64,000 nt of DNA, from positions 2,048,001 through 2,112,000 of the forward strand of contig CAXXLX010000001.1 of assembly GCA_963665235.2 (NCBI GenBank), written 5' to 3'. The notes beneath the pieces are model-generated. The model saw only the letters and a list, made by a program, of their open reading frames with translations, was not told where the DNA came from and searched no databases. The stretch comes from Candidatus Poribacteria bacterium. GTDB lineage: Bacteria; Poribacteria; WGA-4E; WGA-3G. Shown piece by piece: positions 19,640 to 58,357 of this stretch (the stretch's first letter is position 1; each line of letters starts with the position of its first letter). Both the position numbers and the translations under genes were made by a program.

Positions 19640-19704
19640 TATCTGCTCACTTTCGTATTGGTAATAGTGCTATAGTAAATTTTGAAAAAAGTTTTCATCT
19701 AGTA

Positions 19705-19937
19705 TGAGGAGCGGGCTGGTTGCCCGAATACTGGGCGATAAGTTTGCTCCTTAGGGACGCTATGTTTATAGGCACCTGGGTTTTTGTCCAGCTCTTAGTC
19801 CCGTAGGGACGCTATCTTTATAGAAAACCGTTTCCGCCCCGGCTCTTAGTCCCAGTATTCAGGCAAGCAGCCTGCTCTTAAGGACGATATCTTTATAGAA
19901 GTTAGTGCAAACGGACATTTATTATCAAGCTCACGTT
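19705..19937. repeat. Cluster of AGTCCCGTAGGGACG-type REP units containing two copies of the AGTATTCGGGC micro-element
   Basis: Units at ~19750, 19791 and 19842. Tail GTTAGTGCAAACGGACATTTATTATCAAGCTCACGTT is shared with 31237-31384 and 40985-41075. Confidence 0.75.
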
Positions 19938-22231: not shown

Positions 22232-22345
22232 CAGGGCTTCACATCGCGTTGATAAAGTCCATAGATAATGGGATGTAAAGCGGGACCTAGCGGGCGAGGT
22301 GACCTCGCCCCTACGATGCTACATGCTAAATTTGCATAAGTCCTG
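22232..22345. mobile_element. MITE family B, degenerate copy
   Basis: Inverted homolog of 50560-50699 with TIR TGCATAAGTCCTG and an internal GTAG REP. Confidence 0.65.
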
Positions 22346-31236: not shown

Positions 31237-31384
31237 TAACTGAGTTTGATAATAAATGTCCGTTCGCACTAACCTCTATAAACATATCGTCCATACTGGA
31301 CTAAGAGGAGGGGGTAGAAACCGCCGCTTCTATAAACATATCGTCCATACTGGACTAAAGAAAACTTCTTCCAAACTCACGTTA
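31237..31384. mobile_element. MITE-like element with two REP units
   Basis: Inverted ends TAACTGAGTTTG / CAAACTCACGTTA. Two CTATAAACATATCGTCCATACTGGACTAA units. Confidence 0.6.
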
Positions 31385-40500: not shown

Positions 40501-40917
40501 TTTCACGTCAAATTTGTCAAAAGGAAGGATGGCAACGCGCGCCCGGGGCAACGTGTCTAAGCCGCTGAATCTCATAAACTCCTGCACAATGGGATGCGTT
40601 TGTAATTCAGCACCGTGTTCTGCCAAATGTAGCAAGGCAATGAGGGCATGCGTTTTTCCACCGCCGTAAGCGACCTGAACGTTAATAACGGAAGGGCCGC
40701 CTTTTCCAGTTAACCGGAGAAGGACATCTCGTACCAATTTTTTCAGATTATGGGGCGCATAGGTTCGATCGAAAAAAAGATCTGGCACACGATAGACGTT
40801 GAGTGCGTCTCCCGTTCGTACTGCATAGAGATCAGCCGCGAATTCAGAGAGTTCAAGTGTCCCTTGTCTTACATCATCTCTCAAAATACACTGTTCATGC
40901 CAAGCATTTTTGTCCAT
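37552..40917 (-). CDS. DUF499 family AAA+ ATPase
   Basis: FAADLY, AYGGGKTH, LILLDE, SYPFHP and FQRTRGVLR motifs. Confidence 0.88.
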   Translation of the reverse strand: MDKNAWHEQCILRDDVRQGTLELSEFAADLYAVRTGDALNVYRVPDLFFDRTYAPHNLKKLVRDVLLRLTGKGGPSVINVQVAYGGGKTHALIALLHLAEHGAELQTHPIVQEFMRFSGLDTLPRARVAILPFDKFDVKAGLEVVSPDGKKRWVKTPWGALAYQLAGDEGLKKIAEHETDYIAPTQPLLTELLKAPRDEDLSTLILLDEALMYMRNAVIDDPNRLGIFQDFFQGLTQAVASVDRTAIVASLLSFDKAANDPTGTQVLSEIGNIFQRVRESVEPVDRKDVSELLRRRLFEYIPPEKERRAVVNCLVESMKKLPLRASQKDSRAANRLLESYPFHPDLIEVFYQKWTQLTHFQRTRGVLRTFAIALREADGKDISEFIGPTTLLGTDGELSEVIRELVGACDEGTQWPPILTGELERARAVQKELPLLKSREIEAAVIATFLHSQPIGQKAELADLYLLLAHADIDVVSVDKGLSEWRAASWFLKENKDSWALGTNPNLTNMHFHAMRRVTDAQISEDLVKCIRDAKLGRTVDRMNVHTLPQASTDIPDTPELRFVLAAPEYAAVPGEEVSESLAEFFKSTYRNNVIILAPEKSRLLGLQGRIRKILGWQNIESGDDMDLLSEPQKALLLQRKKEDEADILESVISAYSVLIAVDEDGDIKASLLPPGRDSAFERVKAALVDEERLLTTVLDPELLTPESYFDLWGDRQTEKPAQVLYSMFGSMPRLPRLLNWQVFVDTLRRGVAEGRIVLRIVRPDTSLKTYWREPPPAADTDADDFWKKVEIVPIEHAELHNLSAELLRPGQLSEVWPDDSVPTTIGVIRGFFDGDEVPKLVSDDVLLDAIQDAVQNGLVMARHQGKAYLKEKIPDTDITDDTELLTPLVPISGSELTHKTLPDVWENDTTSLSKIMDALAVRKGTPIPWPLIREAVSDGISNNLFEFSSGSPVWPCSAEEADKVGLKVLEVAVPVKITPAELIGQDAADVWASSQPTLESIKAALESKRGVSIPEDVFREAVDRAIESGIIVREGQSSEDWYKTKVRRPAWLKRAESHLTGSQIQDLAETVGDLLDIAPELDFKFRISITAEGEPPSDEVLEQVNAALQKVADPLKFETA

Positions 40918-40984
40918 GGATTCCCTCCTTCACTTTTTCCGCATTGTAAGGGCAATATATTTATAGGAACAGGATTTCCCCATT

Positions 40985-41075
40985 AGTCCCAGTATTCGGG
41001 CAAGCAGCCCGCTCCTTAAAGACGATATGTTTATAGAGGTTAGTGCGAATAGACATTTATTATCAAGCTCACGTT
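40985..41075 (+). repeat. REP/MITE remnant carrying the AGTATTCGGGC micro-element
   Basis: Homologous to 19848-19937. Confidence 0.7.
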
Positions 41076-41095
41076 ATATTAGGCATTGTCCAGTC

Positions 41096-41139
41096 AAGTT
41101 TAGCACGATTCGCATGCTAACGTCAAGCAAAATTCGCAA
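41096..41139 (-). promoter_or_regulatory. Promoter with TGCGAAT direct repeats upstream of the DUF499 gene
   Basis: TTGACG-N17-TAAACT with extended TG. Near-copy of 35538-35581. Confidence 0.6.
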
Positions 41140-41261
41140 AAAAATATTCTGTTCTCATACACTGTTCTGTCTATGAACACAGAGCAACCCGTGAACGGTT
41201 ATTGGCTACCGGGCAGCCCCTTAAGCAGATGTTGCACACCTGCTTCTCTCTGAGATCATAA

Positions 41262-44180: not shown

Positions 44181-44237
44181 TTCGGTTTTTCCTTTCGGTC
44201 AGTGCTGCCGCTAGTGCTTTGTTACCTTTCAATAAGC

Positions 44238-44319
44238 TGCTATAAACATATCGTCCCTACGGGACTGATAGGGGAGGGTTGGTCTTTGCTGCTATAAATA
44301 TATCGTCCCTACGGGACTG
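44238..44319 (-). repeat. Two REP units (AGTCCCGTAGGGACGATAT-TTTATAGC)
   Basis: Direct repeats at ~44238 and ~44291. Confidence 0.72.
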
Positions 44320-44651
44320 AAGAGCATCATTCCTATTTAGAAAAATCCTTTTGCCATTCGCTAATTTGCTAATTGCCAAAGAGATTGTTACGCACCTTAA
44401 AATCCGCGATTTGCGGCGTACTCGCCCAAATGCGACGTGCATTCAGACAACACCCGCGAAATCCACCCTTCCACTTTTCCACCACTCCCTTTGACAAAAA
44501 CTTCACTCCCCTAAAATTGCCCAAAGTTTAGTATAACACAATTTGACAAAACATAGCAAACTTTTTTTGCCGACCCCCTATGGCGTGAACGAAACATCAT
44601 AGCAATTGCGTTCTCAGTGCTTGTGTTTTGTAGCCTCTTCCAGGTAGGAAA

Positions 44652-47600
44652 CTAAACAGAGCCCTTTATGATATCACCGGCTTTAATAATTACACTCCCC
44701 GTGGGTTTCGCAATAAGATTAGCAAAGGGGTCTCGGCATGGGTATAGCTTCGGTTCAGTGTCACAATGATAGACAACATAGAGCCAATAGCGATTGCCAT
44801 GATTTGCAGCTTGCCGCCATTCATTTGCTGTCAACTCGACATTAGCAAGGCCTGCACGACCTTTGACTTCAATATAACGCACCTCACCGTTTGGGCGTGT
44901 AGATTGTAAATCAAACCCCTTTTTGAGGTTTGGGTTGGAAACATCTTTGACCACCGCCCCGTGCTGGCGTTCATATTCTAGAGCAGTTTTAAGTGCTATA
45001 GCCTCGGTATCTCGTAATATTTTCGTTGCCCCCGCGTCGTCAGCTGGTGGTGGCATTACAAAGGCGCGGACATAAATGCTTACCGGCCCCAGTTGAAGGT
45101 TTTCTATTTCTGCTTTGAGTTTCGCTTCCGCCTCCTCACGTTTTTCAGGAAGTGCTTTGAGTTCCTGCTCACAGTGGTTTAGCTTTGTCTGTGCTGCGGG
45201 AGTGCCTTTTTCAACAGCGTCTCTGAGAATACCTCGCTGTTTAAGCAGTTCTGACTCACGCAAGTTAGAGGAGACTTTAATCTGTTCCCTTCTCTTTTCC
45301 AACTCGCTCTGGAGTTCATTTTGGATATGAATCAATTTCGGGTTTCCGGAGTTTTCACGTACGAAATTTTTAACGGATTCTGTTTCGTCAGCAAGTTCAA
45401 TCCATTCGGTGGACAAAGTTGTAGGAACGTGCGATTCTGCCGTTCTCGGCGTTAAGGTCAATAAGAGGTGCGCCGGTGTTTTCTCACAGCGTCCATCCGC
45501 AAAACGTTTAATTCCGACAAGCATTTCATCAAGGACATGCGATTCGTTATCAGTTTGTCGCATCAGAGGCACTCTCGTTAAATAGAATAGATACGGCTCA
45601 TCTGTTTCCGGATCGAAATAGATTGCGCCGCGTTCCCCTTCGGCGTTGAATTTTTCCAGAAAGCGGGCGCGAATTACGTCAAAAATCGGTTCGCCGGGGT
45701 GTAGAAAAATCGCTTCGGGTTTGTCAGATGCGGCGGGCAGCGCGAGCTCGCGTGAGAACGTTAAGCGGTCTTGCAAATCTATTGGATATTGATTGATAGC
45801 ATTTTTCAAAAACGTAGGACACTCGACTAGCTTGAACGTCTCTTCAATATTGCCCTCAATATTGTAACCGAGATGGGGGGCTGCATCCTCAAGGAATCCG
45901 CGCACATAAGCAGGGAGCATCCGCAGCGTTTCAGCGGATTCCCGCTGCTGCCGAACAGTGCCGAGTAAACGTTTGACTTCACTACACGACACAAATTTCT
46001 GCTGAGCGTCAAGCTGGTTTCGTATATTTTCCGGTGTTAATTGGGTGTTGATAGCTCGAATTGAGGTGTCGACTTGATTCTCTGCGATAGCTTTTGTAAT
46101 AAGCTCGGACAAAGAAATTTCGCTAAATTGTTGTCCGATGACATCAAAGACCTTATCGTCTTTCAATTCTTCACGCATCTTCTCTAATTTTTCCAATAAC
46201 ACTTTTAACACGCGGCCCTCACGTGTCCCTTCGGCGACAAGATTTAACAAAACCACCGTGCGTGTCTGTTTATATCGGTGAATCCGTCCCATCCGCTGTT
46301 CAAGTCGTGCGGGGTTCCACGGAATATCGTAGTTGACCATGAGCCAGCAGAATTGAAGATTGATGCCCTCCCCGGCGGCATCAGTTGCGACAAGGTATTG
46401 CGCGCCGTTCGGGTCACGAAAGAATTTGACCTCTTCTTCGCGTTCACTATATTTCATGCCACCGTGGATCTGAGCAATTCTTCCGGTAAATCCCAATGCC
46501 TCTAAGCGTCTAATGACAAAATTCATCGTGTCGCGATGTTCTGTAAAAATCAGAACTTTTGTGTCTGGATACCTCTTTAATGCCTCCCATAGCTTTTCAA
46601 ACTTACTTTCGGTTTTGAGGTTGTAAACTTTGTTTGCAAGTTCCGTTAGGGCTTGAACGTGAGCGATTTCCGTTTCAAGCTCGTCAATAGAACGTGCGGC
46701 GGTAGCACGTTCAAGCTCCTCATCAACCTGTTCAGCTTCCTCTTTTCCATCAATGATTTCCTCTTCATCCCCCGTTTTTTCTGCTCTGATATCGACGTAT
46801 GTCAATTCCGATTGTGCTTTCTGTAGCTGTTGTGTCGACAAGCTTCCATCTTGAAGGTTTCGGAGAATGGTTTGTAGTTTTTTCGCGCGTCTGATAAGGC
46901 TCTGCCATAGTGCAAATGTTGAGCTGGCAAGTCGTCTTTGTAAAACCATCGTCGCCATCTTTGCCGCGTGCTGGTTATATTGGCCAGCAAGATCGAAATA
47001 GGTTTCACAATACTCCGTGACCGCATTGTACAACGATTGCTCACTAATTTCCCCCTGCTTCAGCGGGTAAGCGATAGTCCGGCTAAGCCGAGGCGGGTAG
47101 ATAAGTTTTTCATCAAAAGTAATCATCTCCTCCTTCATACGTCGGAGCAGATGTTTCGATTTGTCGTCGGCACTCAAACGTTCGAACGCTTTTTGTGCAG
47201 CGAGGTGTTCAGGCAGAAGTAGCCGCCAGAGAAAATAGTAGGCATCATCTTTCCCCATGTGGGGTGTTGCTGTCAGCAATAGTAAACTCTTTTCCTGTTC
47301 TGCGATTTTTTCAGCAAGTTGGTATCGCTTCGATTTCGTTACCGTTCCATCTAACTCAAATCGCGCGGAGAGTTTGTGTGCCTCGTCAAAAACAATTAAA
47401 TCGTAAGGTGGCGCGTCAAAAAGGCAGTCCTGCATTCGCGATTGCCTTAGGGTATCAAGACTTACAATGGCGAGCCGATTTTTGTCATCCATAAACGGAT
47501 TTGCATCGGCAGCATCACTCCCCGACAAAATGCGGAATTGGAGTCGAAAACAGACGCGTAGTTCACGTTCCCAGTTGCCAATCAATCCCGCTGGTGGCAC

Positions 47601-48080
47601 AATTAGGATACGCTCAACTCGCTGCCGCAGTAAAAGCTCCTGGATATAGAGGCCTGTCATAATCGTCTTTCCAGCCCCCGCATCATCAGCCAACAGAAAA
47701 CGCAGCGGAAAATGTTTCAGTAGATGTTCATAGACCGCGATATATTGATGAGGCAATGGATCGATAAGTGATGTTTCCGTTCCAAACAGCGGATTGAACA
47801 GATAGGCGTGGCGAAGGCGATACGCTTCAGCGACAAGCCTTACTAAATTTGCCTCAGCTTCAAAAGCATCTGATACAATCTCAAACCGTGCTCCAAATTC
47901 TTCGATGGAATAGGTAAACGGCCCAGCAGCATCGTTCTGAAAATAGAGACAAACGGATGAACTATGCTTTTGAACCTGCGAAATTACCAACTCCCTCTTC
48001 CGATATTTATCAATCAAGGACATCCCGGGTTGAAGGGTGTCAATATGAATTGCGTTTGTTTGTCGTTCTAGAGAATTCAT
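44652..48080 (-). CDS. SNF2-family helicase with C-terminal DUF3883 PD-(D/E)xK nuclease domain
   Basis: LLADDAGAGKT, FDEAH, LTATPH and EQRMGRIHR; C-terminal GFDLQS...YIEVKGR. Confidence 0.9.
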   Translation of the reverse strand: MNSLERQTNAIHIDTLQPGMSLIDKYRKRELVISQVQKHSSSVCLYFQNDAAGPFTYSIEEFGARFEIVSDAFEAEANLVRLVAEAYRLRHAYLFNPLFGTETSLIDPLPHQYIAVYEHLLKHFPLRFLLADDAGAGKTIMTGLYIQELLLRQRVERILIVPPAGLIGNWERELRVCFRLQFRILSGSDAADANPFMDDKNRLAIVSLDTLRQSRMQDCLFDAPPYDLIVFDEAHKLSARFELDGTVTKSKRYQLAEKIAEQEKSLLLLTATPHMGKDDAYYFLWRLLLPEHLAAQKAFERLSADDKSKHLLRRMKEEMITFDEKLIYPPRLSRTIAYPLKQGEISEQSLYNAVTEYCETYFDLAGQYNQHAAKMATMVLQRRLASSTFALWQSLIRRAKKLQTILRNLQDGSLSTQQLQKAQSELTYVDIRAEKTGDEEEIIDGKEEAEQVDEELERATAARSIDELETEIAHVQALTELANKVYNLKTESKFEKLWEALKRYPDTKVLIFTEHRDTMNFVIRRLEALGFTGRIAQIHGGMKYSEREEEVKFFRDPNGAQYLVATDAAGEGINLQFCWLMVNYDIPWNPARLEQRMGRIHRYKQTRTVVLLNLVAEGTREGRVLKVLLEKLEKMREELKDDKVFDVIGQQFSEISLSELITKAIAENQVDTSIRAINTQLTPENIRNQLDAQQKFVSCSEVKRLLGTVRQQRESAETLRMLPAYVRGFLEDAAPHLGYNIEGNIEETFKLVECPTFLKNAINQYPIDLQDRLTFSRELALPAASDKPEAIFLHPGEPIFDVIRARFLEKFNAEGERGAIYFDPETDEPYLFYLTRVPLMRQTDNESHVLDEMLVGIKRFADGRCEKTPAHLLLTLTPRTAESHVPTTLSTEWIELADETESVKNFVRENSGNPKLIHIQNELQSELEKRREQIKVSSNLRESELLKQRGILRDAVEKGTPAAQTKLNHCEQELKALPEKREEAEAKLKAEIENLQLGPVSIYVRAFVMPPPADDAGATKILRDTEAIALKTALEYERQHGAVVKDVSNPNLKKGFDLQSTRPNGEVRYIEVKGRAGLANVELTANEWRQAANHGNRYWLYVVYHCDTEPKLYPCRDPFANLIAKPTGSVIIKAGDIIKGSV

Positions 48081-48138
48081 GCTACTGTCCGGAAATTTTC
48101 ACTGTTTAGGACTCTGGTGCGAATTAGATTGCCACAAA

Positions 48139-49437
48139 TCATTTTTTCATAACCGCTTCAATTTCATCAATCTCTTTCGGAATCGTATCCGTTAGAATTT
48201 CACAACCGTCCTCCGTCACCAAAATATCATCCTCAATACGCACCCCTATCCCGAGATATTCAGGCGGCACCCGTTTCGTCTTCTCGGCAACATACAGCCC
48301 GGGTTCAATTGTTATCACCATCCCCGGTTGAAAAGTTTTGTACTCACCATCCCGTTCATGGACACAATTCACATCGTGAACATCCAAACCGAGCATGTGT
48401 CCAATCCTGTACATATAAAACTTCCTGTATGCCTTTTTCTTAATCAATTTCTCTTTTTTACCTGCTAAAAGACCGAGGTGAAGCATACCCTCTGTCAGCA
48501 ACTCGATCGATTTTTGGTGCGGTTCGTCAATAGAAACGCCAGGGCCGATACCCTCAATAATAGCTTTTTCTGCCTCCAGGACAACCTGATAGATTTGCCG
48601 TTGTGCTTCAGTAAAAGTGCTGTTTGCGGGAAAAGTTCGGGTGACATCTCCGCAGTATCGGTCATATTCAGCCCCCGCATCGAGGAGCACAAGGTCGCCA
48701 TCCTGAATTTGACGGTTGTTCGTTCTATAGTGGAGCGTCGTTGCATTTCCGCCGCTTGCCACAATACTCGGAAAAGCCGTACCGTTTGCCCCATTTTGTC
48801 GGAACGTAGCCTCAACAATCGCCTCTAATTCGTATTCGTACATGCCCGGGCGCACCGCCTGCATCGCCGCGATATGTCCAGCTGACGTAATGTCCGCAGC
48901 CCGTCGGATGCGGTCGAGTTCTGTCTCATTTTTGATTAACCGCATCTCACTCAGGATTGGACTCGGGTCCGTGAGTGTATCAAACCCCTTCCCCGTTCTG
49001 ATTCGAGCTCTGACAGCCTGCTGAAACCGTGTAAGGATTTCTGTATCAAGGTTTGTATTTGAACCCAGCGTATAATAGAGCCTTTCCGCCTTTTTCAGGT
49101 ACCGGTTTATCCTTTTGGGAAATTTGTCTATCGGATACGCCTTATCCGCGCCGTAATGTTTACAAGCATTTCGTACACCGACCCGTTTACCGTCCCAGAT
49201 TTCTGCCTTTTTGTTCTTCGGCAGAACGAATAGGATATATTGATGTTTCGGGTGGTCCGGAGCAAGTACACATATAGCGTTCGGTTCTTCAAACCCCGTT
49301 AGGTAATAAAAATTGGGGTCCGGGTTATAAATATGTGTTGTATCGTGGTTTCGCATAGCCGGCGTAGCATTCGCGAAGATTGCCACACTACCCGGAGCCA
49401 TCTGTTTCATAAATTTCTTACGATTTTTTTCGTGCAT
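48139..49437 (-). CDS. pepP: Xaa-Pro aminopeptidase
   Basis: LLDAG, GDVTRTFP, GHMLGLDVHD, TIEPGLY and GVRIEDD motifs. Confidence 0.92.
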   Translation of the reverse strand: MHEKNRKKFMKQMAPGSVAIFANATPAMRNHDTTHIYNPDPNFYYLTGFEEPNAICVLAPDHPKHQYILFVLPKNKKAEIWDGKRVGVRNACKHYGADKAYPIDKFPKRINRYLKKAERLYYTLGSNTNLDTEILTRFQQAVRARIRTGKGFDTLTDPSPILSEMRLIKNETELDRIRRAADITSAGHIAAMQAVRPGMYEYELEAIVEATFRQNGANGTAFPSIVASGGNATTLHYRTNNRQIQDGDLVLLDAGAEYDRYCGDVTRTFPANSTFTEAQRQIYQVVLEAEKAIIEGIGPGVSIDEPHQKSIELLTEGMLHLGLLAGKKEKLIKKKAYRKFYMYRIGHMLGLDVHDVNCVHERDGEYKTFQPGMVITIEPGLYVAEKTKRVPPEYLGIGVRIEDDILVTEDGCEILTDTIPKEIDEIEAVMKK

Positions 49438-49493
49438 ACTGTTTTCCTAGATATATCAGGCGATTGTAACCGTCGCCTGCCTTTACAATATTT

Positions 49494-50477
49494 TCAGAGA
49501 TAGTTGATGGGTGTTCCGATTTTGCCGATGACCCCGCCGCTGGCGACCATCGGATAGATCGAGTGCGCCCAGAAAATGCCCTCCACCGGAGCACGTATGA
49601 CTTCAACGACATTCCCAAACACGTCACAGATTTCCGCTATCGGTTGGCGAGATTCAAGCCGTTCATACAGTGCCGCTTTGTAGTAGATAAAGCCGCCTTT
49701 ATTGCTGATAAGCGGTACGAATCGGTGGACGACAATTTGCTTATCAGGAATTTCAGGCGTACCCTCAATAAACTGGTACTGTTTTAGCACATTAAGAACG
49801 CCTTGAACCCCTTTGTTGATGCTGGTTGTGTCCCAGCCATGTGTTCCGCCGAGTTCCGGGTCAATTGTCGGTATCCCAATATCTGGAGCGGCCTGTGCCA
49901 GTTGTCCTTTCGGTCCCTTTTGATTGAGGATATAACCGATGCCGAAGGTGCGTGCCAATGCAAGGCATGCCTTGTGGCATTGATGTTTTTCTGAGACTCG
50001 AACGCGCACCTCATCAATCATCGGATGAACGCCACCTTGATGCAGGTCAATGCAGTAGTCAGCATTCGATATAACTTTTTGAAAGAGCTGGTACGCAATC
50101 CGTTCGCTTGATGTTCCATCGGATCTTCCGGGAAAGCAGCGGTTCATCTTAACGTTATCAACTGGACTAAACGCCTGTTTTGCGTGAAAGGCGTGAAAGT
50201 TGACAATCGGTACCACGATGAGACTGCCGCGTAATTGTGAGGGAACAATCTCTCGAAGGATTTGATGAATAACAGCGATGCCGTTTAGTTCGTCGCCATC
50301 GCTAATAGCTTGTATATAGAGCGTTTTGCCCGGGTGTTGTCCGTTGATAAGAACGACTGGCACCCGAATTGCGGTACCATCAGGCAAAGTGCCCATCGCT
50401 AAATGGCCTTCTACCCGTGTGTCCGGTTCCGCTGTCAAATCGCCTATGACTAATTTTTTAGAGTTCGTCTTGTGCAT
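49494..50477 (-). CDS. Succinylglutamate desuccinylase/aspartoacylase family (M14) protein
   Basis: DGDELNG, MNRCFPG, IDLH and PELGG motifs; C-terminal biotinyl-like hairpin. Confidence 0.85.
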   Translation of the reverse strand: MHKTNSKKLVIGDLTAEPDTRVEGHLAMGTLPDGTAIRVPVVLINGQHPGKTLYIQAISDGDELNGIAVIHQILREIVPSQLRGSLIVVPIVNFHAFHAKQAFSPVDNVKMNRCFPGRSDGTSSERIAYQLFQKVISNADYCIDLHQGGVHPMIDEVRVRVSEKHQCHKACLALARTFGIGYILNQKGPKGQLAQAAPDIGIPTIDPELGGTHGWDTTSINKGVQGVLNVLKQYQFIEGTPEIPDKQIVVHRFVPLISNKGGFIYYKAALYERLESRQPIAEICDVFGNVVEVIRAPVEGIFWAHSIYPMVASGGVIGKIGTPINYL

Positions 50478-50559
50478 TATATTGGTTATCAGGTTTGGTT
50501 ACTGGTTATTTATATCGGGCGAGTTGTCGGAAAGAGAAACCCGACACCTTCTATTTAAT

Positions 50560-50699
50560 CAGGACTTACGCAAATTTAGCAGAAACCTCAGTATTCGGGC
50601 AAACGGTTTCCCGCTCTTCTGGGCGGGGTTTCCCCGCCCGCTAGGTCTCGTCTAGATCCCACTATCATTAGGGTTTATCAACGCGCTGCGTAAGTCCTG
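50560..50699. mobile_element. MITE family B
   Basis: Perfect 13-bp TIR CAGGACTTACGCA/TGCGTAAGTCCTG with TTAAT on both sides. Confidence 0.85.
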
Positions 50700-50746
50700 T
50701 TAATGTATCAGAATTTGTGAAAAGTGTCAAGTCGAAAATCTACATT

Positions 50747-51326
50747 GGATGTGTAAAGTTTTTGTACAAAACCGGTGCATAAGTTACACTTTTGACACAA
50801 AGTGTAACATTTGGTTTTCGGTTCTGAATACCCACAAACGCACGCCACGTCTATCTTTTCAAGCAGTTTGTACCTACCTTGGACGATTTCGAAAAAAGTG
50901 AAATGTCACACTTTCGCTATCGAGGGATAAGCAGGTGAGTTGCAAAACGCACCGCTTTCCTCCGAAAAAGGGTTTGGTGTGCTGTTATGTTATACCATTT
51001 CTAATTGAAAATGTCTTTTTCTTGTAGCATAAACTTCCAGTTTGTGCCGTTCTCCGTTTCATTTCTAACAACTGGTAATGGTAGAATAATTAATAAAAAT
51101 GGTATTAGTTGCTAAATGTTTGATTTTTCTTCAGAAAAAATAGGGTGTTGTTTTGGTTGAAGTATTACCCCTCTTAAGAAACGCACCCGTTTTTTCTCTA
51201 GCTTGTCTAAACATGTCGTAGCGATTGGCAATCAGAAATATACTAGCGGGGCGGTCTCGGTTTCTATAGACATATCGCCCATACTGGGCTAATACTGAAC
51301 AACTTGTACAAAAATTTTACGCACTC
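50747..51326. mobile_element. Non-autonomous element with IS256-like ends, containing nested MITE A and a REP
   Basis: Imperfect TIR GGATGTGTAAAGTTTTTGTACAA / TTGTACAAAAATTTTACGCACTC. 9-bp direct repeat ATCTACATT at 50738-46 and 51327-35. Confidence 0.75.
50993..51104. mobile_element. MITE family A, copy 3 (minimal 112-bp form, single REP unit)
   Basis: Same termini as the other copies, with TTA duplication. Confidence 0.9.
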
Positions 51327-51348
51327 ATCTACATTTCTCTGGAAAAAA

Positions 51349-51377
51349 TTGACATTTTCTTGGCAACGTGATAAAAT
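51349..51377 (+). promoter_or_regulatory. Sigma70-type promoter
   Basis: TTGACA-N17-TAAAAT with extended TG. Confidence 0.7.
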
Positions 51378-51484
51378 ATTGAAAAGCGTAGGGAGAACTT
51401 TGTGTGAAAGTGTGCTTGCAAAGCACGGCACTTAAAAACACTCCCTATTAGCGTATAAAACCCTATTAGAAAGGAAATTTAATT

Positions 51485-52258
51485 ATGAAAAAAATCCTTT
51501 ATATCTTTTCCATTTTCGTTTTATCAGTCTGTGTTGTCCATCCCGTTTTCTCGCAAAACTTAAAGAGCGATGAATTTGATGGAGGCGATCAAGATATTGC
51601 GTCCTTCTGGAAAGTCAACAACGGCGATAAAAGCGAATGGGAATTGAACGATGGAAAACTCACTGTCAAGGCTGGTTTCAACCAAAACCTTTGGGCAAAC
51701 GATGATAGCACTCGGTATTATCAGGTCGTTGACCAGGATGAATTTGACATTGAAACCTCAATGATTGCTGATTACGCGGATGGCTCCATAGTTGCGGGAC
51801 TGATCGTCTATTCCGCAGGAACAAAGGATAGTAGAGGCCGCGATGGTGAATGGGTAACCTTGAAGTTATGGGGCCGTGGGGCAGCCCAAGGCAACAATGC
51901 CGTGCTACAGTATCAACGCCGCGAAAATGATGCCGCAAATCTCGGATACGTCGGCACACAGCCAGGCTACAACCCCGCACAAGGTGTCATTCCGATTGAA
52001 ATGCGCCTCAAACGTCAAGGCAACGACTATGAAGCATGGTTCAAGCCGAACGCAGAAGGCGATTGGGTCTCCGTTAGTAAAGTCACAAGCGAACTCAAAG
52101 AACCGCTTGAAGTCGGTATCTATGCCGGCGTTGCCGATGGCGGGCCTCCGGGCAGACTCTCTGTTACGTTTGACTACTTCCGTGAGGCTTCTACACCAGC
52201 ACCCGTAGACCCGCGGGACCGACTCACTGTCACGTGGGGTGAACTTAAAAATTGGTAA
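51485..52258 (+). CDS. Secreted DUF1349/ConA-like jelly-roll protein
   Basis: Signal peptide, SDEFDG, LKRQGNDYEAW and VGIYAG motifs. Tail PVDPRDRLTVTWGELKNW. Confidence 0.72.
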   Translation: MKKILYIFSIFVLSVCVVHPVFSQNLKSDEFDGGDQDIASFWKVNNGDKSEWELNDGKLTVKAGFNQNLWANDDSTRYYQVVDQDEFDIETSMIADYADGSIVAGLIVYSAGTKDSRGRDGEWVTLKLWGRGAAQGNNAVLQYQRRENDAANLGYVGTQPGYNPAQGVIPIEMRLKRQGNDYEAWFKPNAEGDWVSVSKVTSELKEPLEVGIYAGVADGGPPGRLSVTFDYFREASTPAPVDPRDRLTVTWGELKNW

Positions 52259-52333
52259 TCGGGTATCCTATATTTTTAGAACGTAGGTGGCGGCCCTCGG
52301 GCTGCCAACTACCTTCCTAAATGGAGACACATT

Positions 52334-53122
52334 TTGAAACCGATAATTATAGTATTAGTCTTTATGAGTGTAACGATGTTTTTCGGCACGTTTTCTGTAG
52401 AGGGCGCAACCTCACTTGCCGACCCTTTTGATGGAAAAACCTTACAGAACCGGAACTGGAAATGGAAAACTTCTGACGCGAAAGGCGTTGAACCCAAAGA
52501 GTGGGATGTCGGTAAAACCAGAGACGGTTGGTTACACATCACCGGTGAACTCAACCGAAATCTTTGGCCCTCTGATACAACAAATCGCCTCTATCAGGAA
52601 CACAATGATGATTTTGATATAGAAACGCATGTCTATATGGATTACGAAGGCGGCTGCGTTGTTACAGGTTTCGCCGCATATTCCCCTACCACAAAAGACC
52701 GTCAAGGCCGAGATGGTGAATGGGTGACGGTTAAGTTCTGGGGACGAGGCGGCGACGCTATTATCCAATGGCAAAAACGACAGTTCCATGGCGGGGAAGG
52801 ACTGGTAGGACAGGTACCAGGATTTCTAGAACCGGCAGGCGAAATGGATCTCTACATACGCCTTCGCAGAACAGGCAACACCTTTACCGCCTGGTGGAAA
52901 CGTGAAGCCGGTGACGAGTGGATTCAGATTGGTGAAACCCAGCACGACTTTAATGATGACCTTGAAGTCGGAATTTATGCGGGTATCTGTGGCGGCGGCG
53001 GAAAACTCGCTGCACAATACGAATACTTTGAAGACCTCATTACACCGTTTGATGTTTCCCCACGAGCAAAACTGCCAATTGCATGGGGCGACTTGAAACG
53101 AAGGCATGATTTGACCCGCTAA
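52334..53122 (+). CDS. Secreted DUF1349/ConA-like jelly-roll protein (paralog)
   Basis: Shares GRDGEWVT.K.WGRG with the upstream gene. Tail DVSPRAKLPIAWGDLKRR. Confidence 0.72.
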   Translation: MKPIIIVLVFMSVTMFFGTFSVEGATSLADPFDGKTLQNRNWKWKTSDAKGVEPKEWDVGKTRDGWLHITGELNRNLWPSDTTNRLYQEHNDDFDIETHVYMDYEGGCVVTGFAAYSPTTKDRQGRDGEWVTVKFWGRGGDAIIQWQKRQFHGGEGLVGQVPGFLEPAGEMDLYIRLRRTGNTFTAWWKREAGDEWIQIGETQHDFNDDLEVGIYAGICGGGGKLAAQYEYFEDLITPFDVSPRAKLPIAWGDLKRRHDLTR

Positions 53123-53146
53123 TGGTCAAAAGTACTTTTGCAAAGC

Positions 53147-53188
53147 GGTAACTGACAGCACTCCCGGCTGCCAGTTACCCTACCTTTT
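53147..53188 (+). terminator. Terminator-like hairpin
   Basis: GGTAACTGACAGC...GCTGCCAGTTACC followed by a pyrimidine run. Confidence 0.5.
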
Positions 53189-53201
53189 CGGCTATTTATT
53201 T

Positions 53202-53759
53202 ATGGCGACATTTTACAGAGGTGCGGGGATTGGCACACATTGGCATATCCGAGATTCACGACAGGTAGGGTTTACGGCAAGAGCCCCGCACAATACACCG
53301 ACTACAGAAGCACTAGTAGCCCATATTGCTACAGGGACGGTTAACAGTCCGTATATTTCACTGACATCCTCCTACGCGGTGGCATGGCATTATGCAGTAT
53401 TTAGTGGTAGGAGAGAACCAACATCAGGAGACCCAGCTTACATTTACGAGCTAGAGATTGACGACTCACTTCCACATGGGCTTAATCTGCTAAATCCGGT
53501 CAAAGAAGTTGTGCATATCTTACCGCAACCTTTACGAGGGGTTGTAGACCTGGGATATATGGAACATCTTCTAGCTGGACAAACACCACAGCGACCTGAT
53601 CATATCGAAACTTCTTCACTTCTAACGGCACTTACGTTTGCACAACGGGATGCAGAAGTGCTCGCGCATGGTTACATACCTCCGTTTTGTGTGAAACACC
53701 GTTTTGAAATAGAGTTTTCTCTATCAGATTTACCCCTTGCCGAGGAGAATTTAAAATGA
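53202..53759 (+). CDS. Putative R-S-E class (cholera/pertussis-toxin-like) ADP-ribosyltransferase
   Basis: FYRG, GF, YISLTSS, YIYEL and DAEVLAHGYIP are collinear with CT-A1 LYRA/YVSTS/YIYVI/EQEVSALGGIP. No signal peptide. Confidence 0.7.
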   Translation: MATFYRGAGIGTHWHIRDSRQVGFTARAPHNTPTTEALVAHIATGTVNSPYISLTSSYAVAWHYAVFSGRREPTSGDPAYIYELEIDDSLPHGLNLLNPVKEVVHILPQPLRGVVDLGYMEHLLAGQTPQRPDHIETSSLLTALTFAQRDAEVLAHGYIPPFCVKHRFEIEFSLSDLPLAEENLK

Positions 53760-54346
53760 ACATGTTTAACATTCGTAACGTTGACCTAAATGACGTGTCA
53801 GATGGCAACTTCATTAAGTTCCTTAGGATAGAAATACCTGAGCGGAAGGGTTACGGGCCTATACCCTTTGCTAGAGTTCGCTATGCCTTGAACGGAGATA
53901 GACGTGAAGAAGAAAACGGTTTACCTATCGATCTGGGTAAAGGTATCTTTACGGCTACACTTGAGGATGAGGAACTTGGCGAAATTCCACGGGAAGAACT
54001 AGAAGATACCCTGCAAAAAGCAGCAAAAGAGATTGTTAAAATCGTCCGGAAAGAATTAGATCCGCCTGCTATTCTCAAGTGCATCTTAAAAGATTACGCG
54101 TACCTCGAATATAGTGAAAAGCACTCTAAACCGCCAGATTTTTTAAGGTGCAACGTTATCGATCCAGAAAGTTCACGCCAGGCAGCCGATATTTTCGAAA
54201 TAGCTCGTAGATTAAGGACCGCCACAGGTATAGGTTATGATGTCAATTATGGCGGTCCCTCTAGTGATGGCGATGATTTTGATAAAGTCTGGACAAGTTT
54301 CTCTTTAAGAAAACTCAATTTTGGAGAAAAATCCAGCGAAAATTAA
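53756..54346 (+). CDS. Hypothetical acidic protein translationally coupled to the ART
   Basis: ATGA overlap and RBS GAGGAG inside the upstream gene. Confidence 0.7.
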   Translation: MNMFNIRNVDLNDVSDGNFIKFLRIEIPERKGYGPIPFARVRYALNGDRREEENGLPIDLGKGIFTATLEDEELGEIPREELEDTLQKAAKEIVKIVRKELDPPAILKCILKDYAYLEYSEKHSKPPDFLRCNVIDPESSRQAADIFEIARRLRTATGIGYDVNYGGPSSDGDDFDKVWTSFSLRKLNFGEKSSEN

Positions 54347-54352
54347 AGGATT

Positions 54353-55243
54353 TTGTCTACCGTGCGATGCGCCTGTCTTCCGCTTCTGATATATCTGCTC
54401 AGCATTTGGGGAGGTTTTGTCACTGCCGAATTGGGCCCGGATGCTGAAAAAGTGTCTGCCACCATAGAATGGATTCGCATTTCGGAAGGCGAATTCCTTA
54501 TGGGCTCAACACCCAACGAAGCAGAAGCCGCTTATACAAACGCAAAATTACGCAGCTCCCTGCTAGAAAAGCATAACTTCGACGCTGAAGTGCCACAACA
54601 CCGCGTCCATCTCGCCGCCTACCAAATCTCGCGTTATGAAATCACGAATGCCCAATACCGCGCCTTCATTGCCGCAACAGACCGCCCCACCCCTCGTGGG
54701 CATCAAGGCGAGGAGACCTGGGCAGATGACACCCTTAACGCAGACGATCAGCCGGTTGTCGGGGTGACCTGGTTTGATGCACAAGCGTTTGCAGAGTGGA
54801 TTGGCGGGAGCTTGCCGACAGAAGCGCAATGGGAACGCGCTGCACGAGGGGCAGATAGGCGGATATATCCCTGGGGCAACGAACCGCCGAAAGCACGGCA
54901 CCATGCCAATTTCGCCAGACGTTACAACCGACCGATGCCTGTTGGACACTTTCCGAAAGGCGCGACACCAGATGGCATCGAAGACCTCGCCGGAAATGTC
55001 TGGGAGTGGTGTCTTGATGAATACGATCCGAGCTTCTATCAACAAAACCGCGAGGATATCAAGCGAAATCCGCTCAACCTCCGTTTTCGCGATGTTTTAC
55101 GCCCGCGCGTCATTCGCGGAGGAGCTTGGGATGTTGGCAGGACATTCCTACGTTCCGGGTTACGGTTTAAATTCTATCCGTTAGATTCAACACACACAAT
55201 TGGGTTTCGGGTAGTGCGCCCGCGTCCAAAAATAGAAAAATAA
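54353..55243 (+). CDS. FGE-sulfatase (SUMF1/PvdO-like) domain protein
   Basis: FLMGS, LPTEAQWERAARG, GNVWEW, RGGAW and IGFR motifs. Lacks the catalytic FGE cysteines. Confidence 0.88.
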   Translation: MSTVRCACLPLLIYLLSIWGGFVTAELGPDAEKVSATIEWIRISEGEFLMGSTPNEAEAAYTNAKLRSSLLEKHNFDAEVPQHRVHLAAYQISRYEITNAQYRAFIAATDRPTPRGHQGEETWADDTLNADDQPVVGVTWFDAQAFAEWIGGSLPTEAQWERAARGADRRIYPWGNEPPKARHHANFARRYNRPMPVGHFPKGATPDGIEDLAGNVWEWCLDEYDPSFYQQNREDIKRNPLNLRFRDVLRPRVIRGGAWDVGRTFLRSGLRFKFYPLDSTHTIGFRVVRPRPKIEK

Positions 55244-55263
55244 CCCCTTTTCCGCTATAAACA

Positions 55264-56907
55264 ATGGCTATTCCAACCCTGCGAACCTACTTAATCCTTT
55301 GTCTGCACCTTATATTGCCGATGCTAGCGACTGCCGCCCCCTATTTTCGGGATGTTACGGTTGAGATGGGCCTCGATTTTCGCCATGTTAACGGCTTTTC
55401 CGAAGAACGCCGCCTCGTTGAAACGATGGGCAGCGGCGGCGTACTCTTTGACTTCGATAACGACGGGGACCTAGACCTTTATCTCGTTCAAGGCAATTCC
55501 CTTTCACCTCCAGCGGGCAAAGAAAAATCCCCAAAAAACCGCCTCTATCGCAACGATGCCGGGAGCTTTGTTGACATTACCGAATCAGCAAAAGTCGGGG
55601 ACACCGGGTACGGGCTCGGTGCCGTGGCAGCCGATTACAACGGCGATGGACATAGAGACCTCTATGTGACAAATCTCGGCGCGAATGTGCTTTACCGTAA
55701 TAATGGCGATGGCACATTCACCGATGTAACCGAAAAAGCACAAGTTGGCTGCCCACTGCTGAGTGCCAGTGCCGCCTTTGCTGATATTGACAGAGATGGC
55801 GCACTCGATTTGTACGTTTGCAACTACGTCGAGTACGCGTTGGAGACAGATGTTCCGTGCTACTTCAAAAACGACCTACGCATCTATTGCGGACCGAACG
55901 AATATCACGGTATAGCCGATGTACTTTATCGAAACAACGGAGATGGCACATTCACAGATATTACAAAATCAGCAGGGGTTTATCAACCCACCACGCGTGG
56001 ACTCGGGGTTGTTTTTACAGACATAAACAACGATGGATGGGCCGATATCTACGTCGCCAACGATATGTCCCCCAATACACTTTTCATCAACCAGCAAAAC
56101 GGCACCTTTAAGGAGGAAGGCGTTGCCCGCGGGGTTGCCTATAACGGGGACGGCATTGCAAACGGCTCTATGGGAGTGGATGCTGGCGACTACGACAACG
56201 ACGGCGACATTGACCTGTGGGTGACGAACTTCTCGCTCGAAGCAAACTGTCTCATGCAAAACGACGGCACCGGCTATTTTGACGATGTGACGTTCGATTT
56301 AGGCCTCGCGAAACCTTCATTTTATCCACTCGGTTTTGGCACCCGTTTTATCGATTTTGATAACGATGGATGGCTCGATATACTCGTTGGCAATGGACAT
56401 ATCTGGGATAACGTGGCACAGATTGACGCGAAACTCCAGTATGCGCAGCCTGTGCAGCTGTTCCGTAATCACGCTGGAACATTTACAGAGATGACAACTG
56501 CTGCAGGGTTACACGAAACAGCTTATGTAGTACGCGGCATGCTGTTCGGCGATATTGATACAGATGGGGATGTTGATGTTATTTTGTGTCAATCAAACCG
56601 CCCGGCGGTTATTCTCCGCAACGAGGTTGGCACTACAAATGCGTGGGTGTCGTTGAAATTAGTTGGCGCAGATGGAAATACCGATGCTATCGGGGCACAA
56701 GTTCGGTTAAACGTAGGTGACCTAACGCTCGTACGCGAGGTTATCTGTGGGGCAAGTTATCTGTCCGGAAACGACTTACGGGTCACCTTCGGTTTGGCAA
56801 ATGCCTCGCGTGTAGATAGTCTCCAGATACGCTGGCCTGATGGAACCGTGCAGCAATTAAATGAGGTGCCGATTCGGCAATGTTTAACGTTAGAACGCGG
56901 AAAGTAG
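55264..56907 (+). CDS. CRTAC1-family FG-GAP repeat protein with ASPIC/UnbV domain
   Basis: Repeated DxDxDGxxDL and NNGDGTFTD motifs; C-terminal DAIGAQV...SYLSGND...FGL. Confidence 0.9.
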   Translation: MAIPTLRTYLILCLHLILPMLATAAPYFRDVTVEMGLDFRHVNGFSEERRLVETMGSGGVLFDFDNDGDLDLYLVQGNSLSPPAGKEKSPKNRLYRNDAGSFVDITESAKVGDTGYGLGAVAADYNGDGHRDLYVTNLGANVLYRNNGDGTFTDVTEKAQVGCPLLSASAAFADIDRDGALDLYVCNYVEYALETDVPCYFKNDLRIYCGPNEYHGIADVLYRNNGDGTFTDITKSAGVYQPTTRGLGVVFTDINNDGWADIYVANDMSPNTLFINQQNGTFKEEGVARGVAYNGDGIANGSMGVDAGDYDNDGDIDLWVTNFSLEANCLMQNDGTGYFDDVTFDLGLAKPSFYPLGFGTRFIDFDNDGWLDILVGNGHIWDNVAQIDAKLQYAQPVQLFRNHAGTFTEMTTAAGLHETAYVVRGMLFGDIDTDGDVDVILCQSNRPAVILRNEVGTTNAWVSLKLVGADGNTDAIGAQVRLNVGDLTLVREVICGASYLSGNDLRVTFGLANASRVDSLQIRWPDGTVQQLNEVPIRQCLTLERGK

Positions 56908-56924
56908 AATTTTTGCTTGCATCC

Positions 56925-58357
56925 TTAGCAGACTTTAAGGCAGCATTAGATGAGGATACCTTCCTATCTGCTGCCACGTTAGACAAGCGATTTAATCAAA
57001 GAAAAAAATCGTATGAGTGGACCTCTGATATGGATCAGGTTGTCGCGCAAAAAAGCATTTTTGTTAACTTGGCTGCTGCCATCAAGAACTGGGTAGACAA
57101 ACAGGCAAGGTTCCCGAGGTTTAAGCGGCGCGGCAAGAAAGAGAGTTTCACAACAAATAATCAATTCGTTGAAGTTCGGGGCAAATATATCAAGTTACCC
57201 AAGATTGGTTGGGTGCGAATGCATCAATCATTAAGAGCGGGCTGTTTGCCCGAATACTGTTTCGTAGGCAAAATCATAAAAGTGACCATAAGTCGCACGG
57301 CCCATCGTTGGTTCGTCTCTATAACCGTTGAAGTGGAGGACACCGAAGCAGTTGACACCTCAACGCACCCCATAATCGGTATAGATGTCGGTATCAACAC
57401 GTTGGCGACGTGCAGTGATGGGACACAATATGAGAATCCGAGACCTTTACAGTGCTTAGAACGCAAGTTAGCCCGTGCTCAACGGAAGTTAAGTCGGCAA
57501 GTGCCCTACTCCAAAAACTGGTTCAAACAGAAGTTGAAAGTTGCTAAGTTGCACTATCGGATTGTTTGTATCCGCCGGGATGCGCACCATAAAGCCAGCA
57601 CAGATATTGTCAATCGTGCGTCAGGCATTGTCATTGAGACGCTAAAAGTGTCTAACCTGCTAAAGAATAGGAAACTTGCTAAAGCGTTGAGTGATAGTGC
57701 GTTAGGCGGTTTTCTATCGTTGCTAAAGACGAAAGCCGAGGCGCGCGGTATCCTTGTAACCGAAGCCTCCCAGTTCTTTGCGAGCAGCAAGACTTGCAGC
57801 AGTTGTGGGAAACCTAAGAAAACAGACTTAACACTGTCAGAAAGAACATACCATTGCAGCGAATGTGGTGTGTCAATAGATAGAGACCTGAACGCTGCTA
57901 TAAACTTACGAAACCTCGCGGCAGGGCATGCCGAGAGCCAAAACGCCTGTGGAGTCCAAGTAATACCATTTTTATTAATTATTCTATCATTACCGGTTGT
58001 TAGCAATGAAACGGAGAACGGAAGACCCAAACTGGAAGTTTATGCTACTATAAAGTGCACAAACTGGAAGTTTATGCTACTATAAAGTGCACAAACTGGA
58101 AGTTTATGCTACTATAAAGTGCACAAACTGGAAGTTTATGCTACTATAAAGTGCACAAACTGGAAGTTTATGCTACTATAAGGCACCCAAACTGGAAGTT
58201 TATGGGACAATAAAGAGACATTTTCAATTAGAAATGGTATAAGCCCTCAATCGGAGGCACGAGAGATGGAAGCAGGAAAAGCCACTTGGAAACAACTCCG
58301 TTTGTTTCCAAGATAAGAGCTAAGAATCCCAATGCTTTAGCTTTGGGAGTATGTCAA
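56925..58357 (+). mobile_element. tnpB: IS200/IS605-family remnant: 5'-truncated tnpB with right end
   Basis: RuvC motifs IGIDVG, IVIETL and DRDLNAAINL, plus Zn ribbon. N-terminus missing. Right-end hairpin AATCCCAATGCTTTAGCTTTGGGAGTATGTCAA ends at 58357. Confidence 0.85.
57964..58239. mobile_element. MITE family A, copy 4, with 6 REP-like units (32-bp period), inserted in the tnpB 3' end
   Basis: TAA duplicated at 57961-63 and 58240-42. Linker TATAAAGT. Confidence 0.9.

Follow-up and report, generated by a model that had tools for sequence, protein, structure and literature searches.

How does one and the same short hairpin come to lie in several unrelated repeats of a single bacterial genome, and inside a transposon gene as well? 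The question is raised by a 64,000-nucleotide (nt) stretch of DNA from a Candidatus Poribacteria bacterium (assembly GCA_963665235.2; 5.31 Mb in 4 contigs, 47.6% G+C), here called the window, which corresponds to positions 2048001-2112000 of contig CAXXLX010000001.1 (C1). The window holds five copies of the element, the last of them within a tnpB frame, and an earlier note, made from the sequence alone, had proposed that the element overwrites the tetranucleotide GTAG. We show that it belongs to a family with 217 copies in the genome, and we conclude with high confidence that it is mobile and site-specific and that it replaces GTAG. We further put at about one half the probability that it is a non-autonomous micro-transposon of this lineage, built like a repetitive extragenic palindrome (REP) and moved in trans by a HUH Y1 enzyme.

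The element family

The element consists of a constant head, AGTATTC, a hairpin of 4-8 bp, a constant GCTC and a tail of 3-6 nt, for a total of 28-34 nt. Its five window copies lie where the earlier note had placed them, each preceded by C and followed by a short tail. Copy 1 (19704-19733, minus strand) comprises C, a 24-nt core at 19709-19732 and the tail CTCAT, and is nested against a degenerate reverse copy at the end of an array of MITE A, one of two miniature inverted-repeat transposable elements (MITEs) that concern us here. Copy 2 (19853-19881, plus strand; core 19854-19877, tail TTAA) carries the covarying stem AGGC/GCCT and occupies the loop position of a unit of REP-A, where REP-A to REP-D are our own labels for repeats of this genome. 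Copy 3 (40990-41019, plus strand; 24-nt core 40991-41014, tail CTTAA) also lies in a REP-A unit, and copy 4 (50589-50620, plus strand), with the 27-nt core variant GGGCAAACGGTTTCCC at 50590-50616 and the tail TTCT, stands in MITE B where a REP-B hairpin would have its GTAG tag. Copy 5 (57231-57259, minus strand; 24-nt core 57235-57258, tail TTAA at 57231-57234) lies inside a tnpB relic, where it replaces GTAA or GTAG-like letters with a net gain of 24 nt. With up to 3 mismatches allowed, the 24-mer has 4 matches in the window, against 0.00 expected from 100 shuffles.

For the census of the whole 5.31 Mb we searched for AGTATTC (with at most 1 mismatch), a middle of 11-19 nt that starts with RGG and whose ends pair over at least 3 bp, and GCTC. 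This pattern retrieved the 217 copies, compared with 0 for a reversed-pattern control. The core is 24 nt long in 152 copies, 27 nt in 58 (mostly with the middle GGGCAAACGGTTTCCC), 30 nt in 3 and of other length in 4. The most frequent middle, GGGCAAGCAGCCC, gives one shared stem-loop to 76 of the 217 copies, and a single identical 24-nt core accounted for 68 of the 127 copies of a first census. Tails are similarly restricted, with CTCAA in 57 copies, TTTAA in 31, CTCAT in 17, CTCTA in 13, TTCAA in 12 and TTAA(G) in 11; their second position is T in 122/125 copies. The position before the element is C in 116/125 copies, and the 5' junction runs constantly flank|AGTATTC. When 5' halves alone were collected genome-wide (n = 237), GCTC followed downstream in 202, the 35 orphans were mostly point-mutated copies or chance matches, and no class of truncated copies was found among the 237. 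Three copies (C1:3796343, C2:191761 and a third on the minus strand of C1) stop at the same point of the loop, after AAGCAG, with unrelated sequence beyond; two of them are followed, 69 nt further on, by a full copy that shares the left flank, and these loop-broken copies look like a duplication around an insert of 35-50 nt.

The earlier note had also described a covarying stem, and the 153 24-nt matches bear this out. The pair 8-20 is G-C in 132 and A-T in 10 of them, the pair 11-17 is C-G in 137 and G-C in 6, and the pair 10-18 is T-A twice; compensatory changes thus occur in 3 of the 4 stem pairs. Other stems seen are GGTGC/GCACC, GGGGT/ACCCC and the perfect GGGAAACC/GGTTTCCC. Folded as single-stranded DNA, four of the five copies in the window form a 5-bp hairpin of -6.2 to -6.5 kcal/mol (z -2.0 to -2.7), and the fold of the 27-nt copy is unremarkable (z -0.5). 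Compensatory changes, together with the intergenic location of most copies, would also suit a hairpin with a host function, be it a terminator, an RNA element or a protein-binding site, that selection had put in place. We regard this as very improbable, given that identical 24-mers in 200 places would need a copying mechanism anyway, that Rfam families gave 0 matches in the whole window at gathering scores, that copies lie inside tnpB relics and other repeats, and that the family is missing from 175 related genomes.

Filled and empty sites

If the element is inserted, places without it should reveal what it displaced. We defined as the empty paralogue of a copy a place in the genome where its 70-nt left and right flanks adjoin, and since global alignment of filled and empty pairs proved too ambiguous, we trimmed identical flanks from anchored ends instead. 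An empty paralogue was found for 98 of the 217 copies. In 70 of the 98 best empty paralogues the junction zone of about 20 nt contains GTAG in the orientation of the element, compared with CTAC in 1/98, which is the enrichment that the earlier note had expected of a genome-wide search. Another 10/98 have GTAA or GTAT only, and the other 18/98, with none of GTAG, GTAA and GTAT, mostly show ATAG, ATCG or AGCG loops or a poor flank alignment.

Flank trimming shows that the letters absent from the filled copy are exactly GTAG in 49 of the 98 pairs. Counted by distinct flank keys the figure is 16/51, most of the remaining keys being GTAG plus a few flank mismatches. No target duplication was seen in any copy, the net gain for a 24-nt core is +24 or +25 nt, and where filled and empty copies share almost the same flank over 60-70 nt on each side, the element is all that distinguishes them. 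Behind the core, CTCAA and TTAA come back as tails in surroundings as different as REP-A, REP-B, REP-C and tnpB, which makes the tail a part of the element and the loss of GTAG a real one. Two sister pairs described in the earlier note illustrate this within the window. An intact GTAG (19803-19806, plus strand) stands in the empty REP-A unit cttagtcccGTAGggacg beside copy 2, which fills the neighbouring unit at 19854, and a GTAG on the minus strand (CTAC on the plus strand, 22311-22314) precedes the REP-B hairpin of an empty MITE B copy, to be compared with the site filled by copy 4 at 50590.

Replacement of GTAG without duplication, as the earlier note had it, is thus supported, although the target is not always GTAG. 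The element replaced GTAA at tnpB site 1 and in another repeat, TTAT or ATAC at tnpB site 2 and TTA at C1:3756807, and in one setting it entered a reverse copy of itself at GAAT. The common denominator is C followed by N-(T/A)-A-N.

Target repeats

Context counts, obtained with approximate regular expressions on the flanks, place 111 of the 217 copies in REP-A units (cttagtccc-GTAG-ggacgatat.tttataga, a 5-bp hairpin with GTAG on top, in arrays), 23 in REP-B (c-GTAG-gggcggggtctccccgccc-gctagg, inside MITE B), 5 in REP-C (ctcttct-GTAG-gagcgtgctgtgcacgc) and 10 in REP-D (acccgtt-GTAG-tagggcgattcat). A further 19 lie at MITE A ends, nested against a reverse element copy, and 49 in other contexts. 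Empty GTAG sites number about 320 in REP-A, 177 in REP-B, 226 in REP-C and 74 in REP-D. In all, the element is present in at least 10 unrelated contexts, the two tnpB sites included.

REP-A units come in two stem types that differ in their loops. The T/A type has 368 empty units, 295 of them with a GTAG loop, and 94 filled ones; the C/G type has 303 empty units, of which 24 have a GTAG loop and 199 read AGCG, and 6 filled ones. The filled share is 20% in the former and 1.9% in the latter when all units are counted, but 24% and 20% when only GTAG-loop units are considered. Because the two shares converge in this way, occupancy tracks GTAG loops rather than hairpins, with the proviso that subfamilies also amplify as units and that the events are not independent.

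That so many copies sit in one repeat family invites the explanation that the hairpin arose once in a REP-A or MITE unit and has since multiplied with its host repeats and by gene conversion, with no insertion activity of its own. The 111 copies in REP-A units are indeed often neighbours, 75-77 nt apart when filled (REP-A units in relatives are about 50 nt apart), and core subtype and tail are linked within REP-A, where 7/7 AGGC/GCCT copies have the tail TTAA. However, the same core also occurs in REP-B, REP-C and REP-D, at the two tnpB sites and, amid unrelated flanks, in about 49 further contexts, the filled and empty pairs differ by the element alone, and adjacent filled REP-A units can hold different core variants. 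We therefore consider passive spread by itself quite unlikely.

Some REP-A units have AGTAT at their loop in place of CGTAG, the same five letters with which the element begins. A loose pattern finds 53 of them (examples lie at C1:2589234-2590598 and, in the window, at 31288-31357 and 51276-51291, that is, C1:2079288, 2079342 and 2099276), and a stricter one finds 36 here against 0 in 111 sister genomes. This restriction to the element-bearing genome suggests a link with the element, be it as precursor, by-product or conversion. We also considered AGTAT loops as a general footprint of excision, an idea that is not supported: AGTAT in place of GTAG was not seen at REP-B, REP-C or REP-D tags, and in REP-A the AGTAT loop equals a C-G to A-T swap of the closing pair.

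The ends of MITE A take three forms (window 19700-19760; C2:51200, C2:824248, C1:3172394). In the first, a lone reverse element copy adjoins C-GTAG-GGAC, the AGT of the element overlapping the TTAGT arm of REP-A; in the second, a forward element lies inside such a reverse copy, replacing GAAT; and in the third, a forward element lies 5 nt past an intact CTAC loop. The first form could be the birthplace of the element family.

Copies inside tnpB and other genes

Copy 5 lies in an open frame of 401 amino acids (56880-58085, plus strand) that scores 253 bits against the TnpB model NF040570 (cut-off 100), the match beginning at profile position 51. The family models match this frame only from profile position 44-51 on, and it is without the N-terminal helix-turn-helix part of its relatives, the PF12323 domain that most of them have. 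The copy adds eight residues, AGCLPEYC, which are absent from the three closest tnpB paralogues in the genome (LR--------FVGK or LAGK). At the DNA level, these paralogues read aaac-GTAA-cgc or near variants where the window reads aaac-[core+TTAA]-tga. An alignment of the 120 best database relatives, the window protein itself among them, shows the insert in none of the 119 others, two of which read exactly HQSLRFVGK. The proposal that taking the element out restores a QSLRFVGK segment thus agrees with the relatives. The significance that the earlier note had attached to the in-frame position is weakened, as the frame is a relic without its N-terminus and the reading frame of the insert may be chance.

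Two other paralogues (C1:2460292 and C1:3254855) carry the element at a second tnpB site, in the 3' part of the gene, with a net gain of 23 nt and a broken frame. Across the genome, 21 copies lie inside open frames of at least 150 codons; most of them fall within the first 13 codons and probably sit upstream of the real start. At C1:3350018 an in-frame copy with a mispaired stem forms the putative first codons of a cysteine-desulfurase-like gene (…QYSGKRPAP-IYLDYNATTP).

The 3' end of the window frame runs into a 33-nt tandem repeat (caaactggaagtttatgctactataaagtgca, about 5 units, 58020-58200), whose unit also forms a longer array on C2 (259116-259718), between the only reverse transcriptase (RT) gene of the genome and a putative Cas1-like frame. 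The last 40 or so residues of the TnpB frame (57960-58085) have counterparts of 76-95% identity at well over 100 places of the genome (tblastn, 175 matches in all), which indicates that the 3' end of this insertion sequence (IS) family spawned an abundant short repeat; this repeat is likely related to MITE B.

Distribution across genomes

To place the family among relatives we used 176 species genomes of the phylum and 112 genomes of the family, this genome included. A stem-specific pattern has 118 matches here and 0 in the other 175 phylum genomes. A general pattern (C, head, 11-19 nt, GCTC, YT) has 181 matches here, with 0 for the control, and 0-3 in the other genomes, equal to their controls. 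One convincing single copy was found in a metagenome-assembled genome (MAG) of the same family, also from Candidatus Poribacteria (L030, 6964-6991). It is intergenic, between a 2-hydroxyacid-dehydrogenase-like gene and a 183-amino-acid gene whose ATG it adjoins, has the stem GGGGT/ACCC and ends in the tail CTATAG, which also occurs in the burst genome. This orphan copy suggests that the family persists at low copy number elsewhere. The exact 24-mer had 0 matches in 185,579 species genomes, JGI metagenome contigs and IMG/VR, and a looser pattern gave at least 21 single matches in unrelated taxa, which by our own arithmetic is about chance level.

The empty target is distributed differently. The REP-A target TAGYCCCGTAGGGRCG occurs 293 times here, in 95 of the 111 other family genomes (up to 484 copies) and in 2/64 genomes outside the family, with 0 in controls. 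Since these 95 sister genomes carry the target without the element above background, the insertion is the derived, lineage-specific state. It follows that the REP-A target is old, and that the element has expanded recently in a single lineage.

We also considered whether the 24-mer is an adapter, a chimera or an assembly artefact. We found nothing in favour of this and give it practically no credence. The 217 copies have stems that covary, fall into three length classes and are specific in their targets, and the 24-mer is absent from the viral, genome and metagenome collections just named. In addition, run X4 of an independent study supplied a 347-nt marine metagenome contig that covers window positions 57057-57402, across the tnpB copy, without a gap and with 22 differences. 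Such a gap-free, divergent match also implies that a diverged relative has the same tnpB insertion. By contrast, three runs of one other study yielded contigs identical to the window where they match it, and these runs may be where it came from.

Candidate enzymes

As the earlier note had stated, the window encodes no enzyme for the element: Y1_Tnp (PF01797) has 13 matches in the genome, 12 of them above cut-off, and all 13 lie outside C1:2048001-2112000. One is a true REP-associated tyrosine transposase (RAYT; C1:831739-832152), with 136 bits against NF047646 (cut-off 80) and the E. coli TnpA-REP structure 4er8 as its sole PDB match. REP-C tandem arrays stand on both sides of it in inverted orientation, and the gene and its arrays are a textbook REPtron. 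None of the matches listed in our literature search joined Poribacteria with REP, RAYT or REPIN.

A second candidate is an IS200-like protein of 157 amino acids (C1:1178437-1178910; 80 bits against NF033573, cut-off 55), whose best PDB matches are the ISDra2 and IS608 transposases. One forward REP-A unit lies upstream of this gene and a long reverse REP-A array downstream, which is how REPs and RAYT genes are classically arranged. At 45 nt from the ATG, the upstream unit holds a variant element with the middle GGGGTGAAACTCC and the tail TTAA; in relatives this unit has an AGCG loop and no element in 3 of 5 examined, the other two being not clearly readable there. Orthologues (57-75% identity) occur in 68 of the 111 sister genomes. 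Their co-occurrence with REP-A is imperfect, one sister genome (G091) having 484 REP-A matches and no orthologue at E<=1e-20. The remaining Y1 genes are six intact IS200/IS605 tnpA genes, with products of 134-137 amino acids, and several fragments. IS91-type Y2 transposases gave no match here, although the control genomes gave none either.

The earlier note had envisaged a different process, in which a nick at C^GTAG leaves a 3'-OH that a polymerase or RT extends on a template supplied in trans, followed by rejoining with loss of GTAG. The exact 5' junction C|AGTATTC with its variable 3' tails of 3-6 nt, and the loss of four target letters without duplication, would fit such a templated write-in, and HUH enzymes do leave a free 3'-OH according to the excerpted account in PMC3479197. 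Against it, the only RT gene of the genome stands beside a putative Cas1-like open frame rather than beside a template, and Rfam group II introns had no match in the 6 kb around it. No master copy was found next to an enzyme gene, apart from the variant upstream of the IS200-like gene. Copies are full length, with no truncated class, and tails that recur in unrelated contexts fit a fixed end better than sloppy rejoining. Templated write-in is thus not shown by these data, and we consider it unlikely.

How the element may move

That truncated copies are absent, and that the same tails turn up in contexts unrelated to one another, favours a fixed element end. The REP-like build, the use of GTAG tags as targets, the single orientation and the lack of duplication favour single-strand HUH chemistry and mobilisation in trans by a Y1 enzyme. 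Read as a REP, the element presents GTAT, TC, a perfect stem of 4-5 bp and a 5-nt loop, with the 5' junction C|A and C/T-T after GCTC. In the scheme that we favour, a HUH Y1 enzyme encoded elsewhere, a RAYT or an IS200-type TnpA, would act on the hairpin DNA, and the element would enter a presumably single-stranded (C)GTAG in one orientation. Entry would remove four letters and leave no target duplication, perhaps through opening of the target on both sides of the bound tag, or else through resolution of the 3' side by synthesis and rejoining, the latter being the write-in process considered above. It is quite conceivable, although we hold this tentatively, that a Y1 enzyme performs the GTAG replacement itself; which of the enzymes would do so is conjecture. 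Cumulative GC skew of C1 and C2 gave no clear origin or terminus, and the orientation of copies could not be related to the lagging strand.

Several observations weigh against mobilisation by a Y1 enzyme. Loss of a target tetranucleotide is not known from any Y1 reaction; in IS200/IS605 elements, according to the excerpts of PMC8266576 and PMC3479197, the target stays in place on the left. The target here is opened at C|G and G|G, whereas RAYTs cut CT or CA; the 3' junction has no constant dinucleotide, with tails varying from 3 to 6 nt; and the head of the element is GTAT, not GTAG. No element was found flanking any Y1 gene in the usual inverted REP arrangement. Contigs of four runs over window positions 40500-58000 showed no gap of 24-29 nt at 40991, 50590 or 57235, and gave no sign of polymorphism, a result of little weight because the contigs of X1-X3 break at repeats. 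Many REP-A copies may have multiplied with their host arrays, in which case independent insertions would be far below 217. Finally, REP-A and the IS200-like orthologues (68/111) are family-wide, whereas the element burst is confined to one genome; an old resident enzyme alone therefore fails to explain the burst.

It is tempting to go one step further and regard the element as a hyperparasite of REPs, in which the HUH enzyme swaps the GTAG tag to which it is bound for a new module of tag plus hairpin. REP lineages would then compete for one enzyme, and the 53 AGTAT-loop REP-A units would be by-products of the reaction. We hold this extension to be doubtful. Were it true, a four-letter replacement not described for any Y1 transposase would disable an old REP and install a competing substrate in its place.

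Implications

How REPs and other very small repeats spread is still open. In this respect, the present genome offers a recent burst whose copies are almost identical, and sister sites by the hundred, empty or filled, whose junctions are exact. Its four-letter target is defined, sister genomes have this target without the element, and the candidate enzymes are few. With such a burst, such junctions, a defined target and so few candidates, the mechanism becomes testable with oligonucleotides. If the replacement reaction is real, it represents a natural, site-specific overwriting of a few bases by a cassette of about 30 nt. And if the published tag requirement applies, then, whichever enzyme is at work, each insertion destroys the RAYT tag of the resident REP and installs a GTAT-type head instead.

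Comparison with known systems

The element shares traits with several known systems without coinciding with any of those considered here. The earlier note had measured it against MITEs, and at 28-34 nt it is indeed far below them in size; the fitting comparison is with REPs (20-40 nt) and the small dispersed repeats (SDRs) of cyanobacteria (21-27 nt). MITEs have terminal inverted repeats and a target-site duplication and are usually 70-300 nt long, whereas the only inverted repeat of the element is its hairpin, no duplication is seen and four letters are lost.

Hairpin-dependent, single-strand transposition into a tetranucleotide target without duplication, as excerpts of PMC8266576 and PMC3479197 describe it for IS200/IS605 elements and their miniature derivatives, is closer, and active-looking tnpA and tnpB copies exist in this genome. 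However, these insertion sequences need two different hairpin ends and keep the target at their left flank, whereas the element has one hairpin and deletes its target: at filled sites the left flank conserves only C and GTAG is absent. Rickettsia palindromic elements and intragenic REPs (PMC3733652, in excerpt) likewise are small palindromic repeats that occur in frame in protein genes. In the present family, true intragenic copies are rare (tnpB relics and one N-terminal region), and the main targets are other repeats.

The SDRs offer a parallel that we can draw by description and not by sequence. SDR4-6 of Nostocaceae are modules of 21-27 nt regarded as mobile, and SDR5 is inserted precisely between the third and fourth letters of HIP1 (GCGATCGC); no mechanism or enzyme is known for it, and its function is given as unknown in later papers (excerpts of PMC4390886, PMC5861425 and PMC13756078, which report on Elhai et al. 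2008). The element, too, is a very small repeated module, with a core of 24-30 nt set precisely into a short host motif by an exact 5' junction at C|GTAG. It differs in phylum, SDRs being found only in Nostocaceae according to the excerpt of PMC5861425, in its target, which is GTAG and not HIP1, and in the replacement of four letters.

The closest likeness is with REPs. Excerpts of PMC3479197 and PMC8266576 agree with the earlier note that GTAG is the tag bound by RAYT nucleases: REPs measure 20-40 nt, and TnpA-REP binds GTAG base-specifically and requires it for cleavage. Any change of a GTAG base abolishes cleavage by the E. coli enzyme, whereas the Marinomonas enzyme tolerates changes (same sources). 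The former is capable of strand transfer and has its cleavage sites between C and T, on each side of the hairpin (PMC3479197), and the latter cuts at C^T and C^A, sites that are re-aimed by changing the tag (PMC8266576). Group-3 REPs of Marinomonas (REP-Mb) have a perfect 5-bp stem and a 4-nt loop 2 nt from GTAG (PMC8266576). The element resembles such REPs in size range, in having a short, perfectly paired hairpin whose stem is preceded, at a distance of 2 nt, by an unpaired tag, and in the presence of RAYT-like genes in its genome. It is a folding, covarying hairpin repeat in high copy number (217 copies, cores of 24-30 nt) and, as in the excerpted accounts of REPs (PMC8266576, PMC3479197, PMC3733652), these hundreds of copies are mostly intergenic and occasionally lie in frame inside genes. 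A parallel for its nesting is the REP family GTAG-23 of T. roseum, which lies inside small palindromes that are also present empty in hundreds of copies (same excerpts).

The element also differs from REPs. At the tag position the element has GTAT, within the constant AGTATTC, where REPs have an unpaired GTAG. It was not seen to flank a RAYT in inverted pairs, the RAYT of this genome being flanked by REP-C and the IS200-like gene by REP-A, with one variant element upstream of the latter, and it lands on, and deletes, the GTAG of other REP families. In the literature that we searched, no REP-like module is described as seeking out the GTAG tags of other REPs and deleting them.

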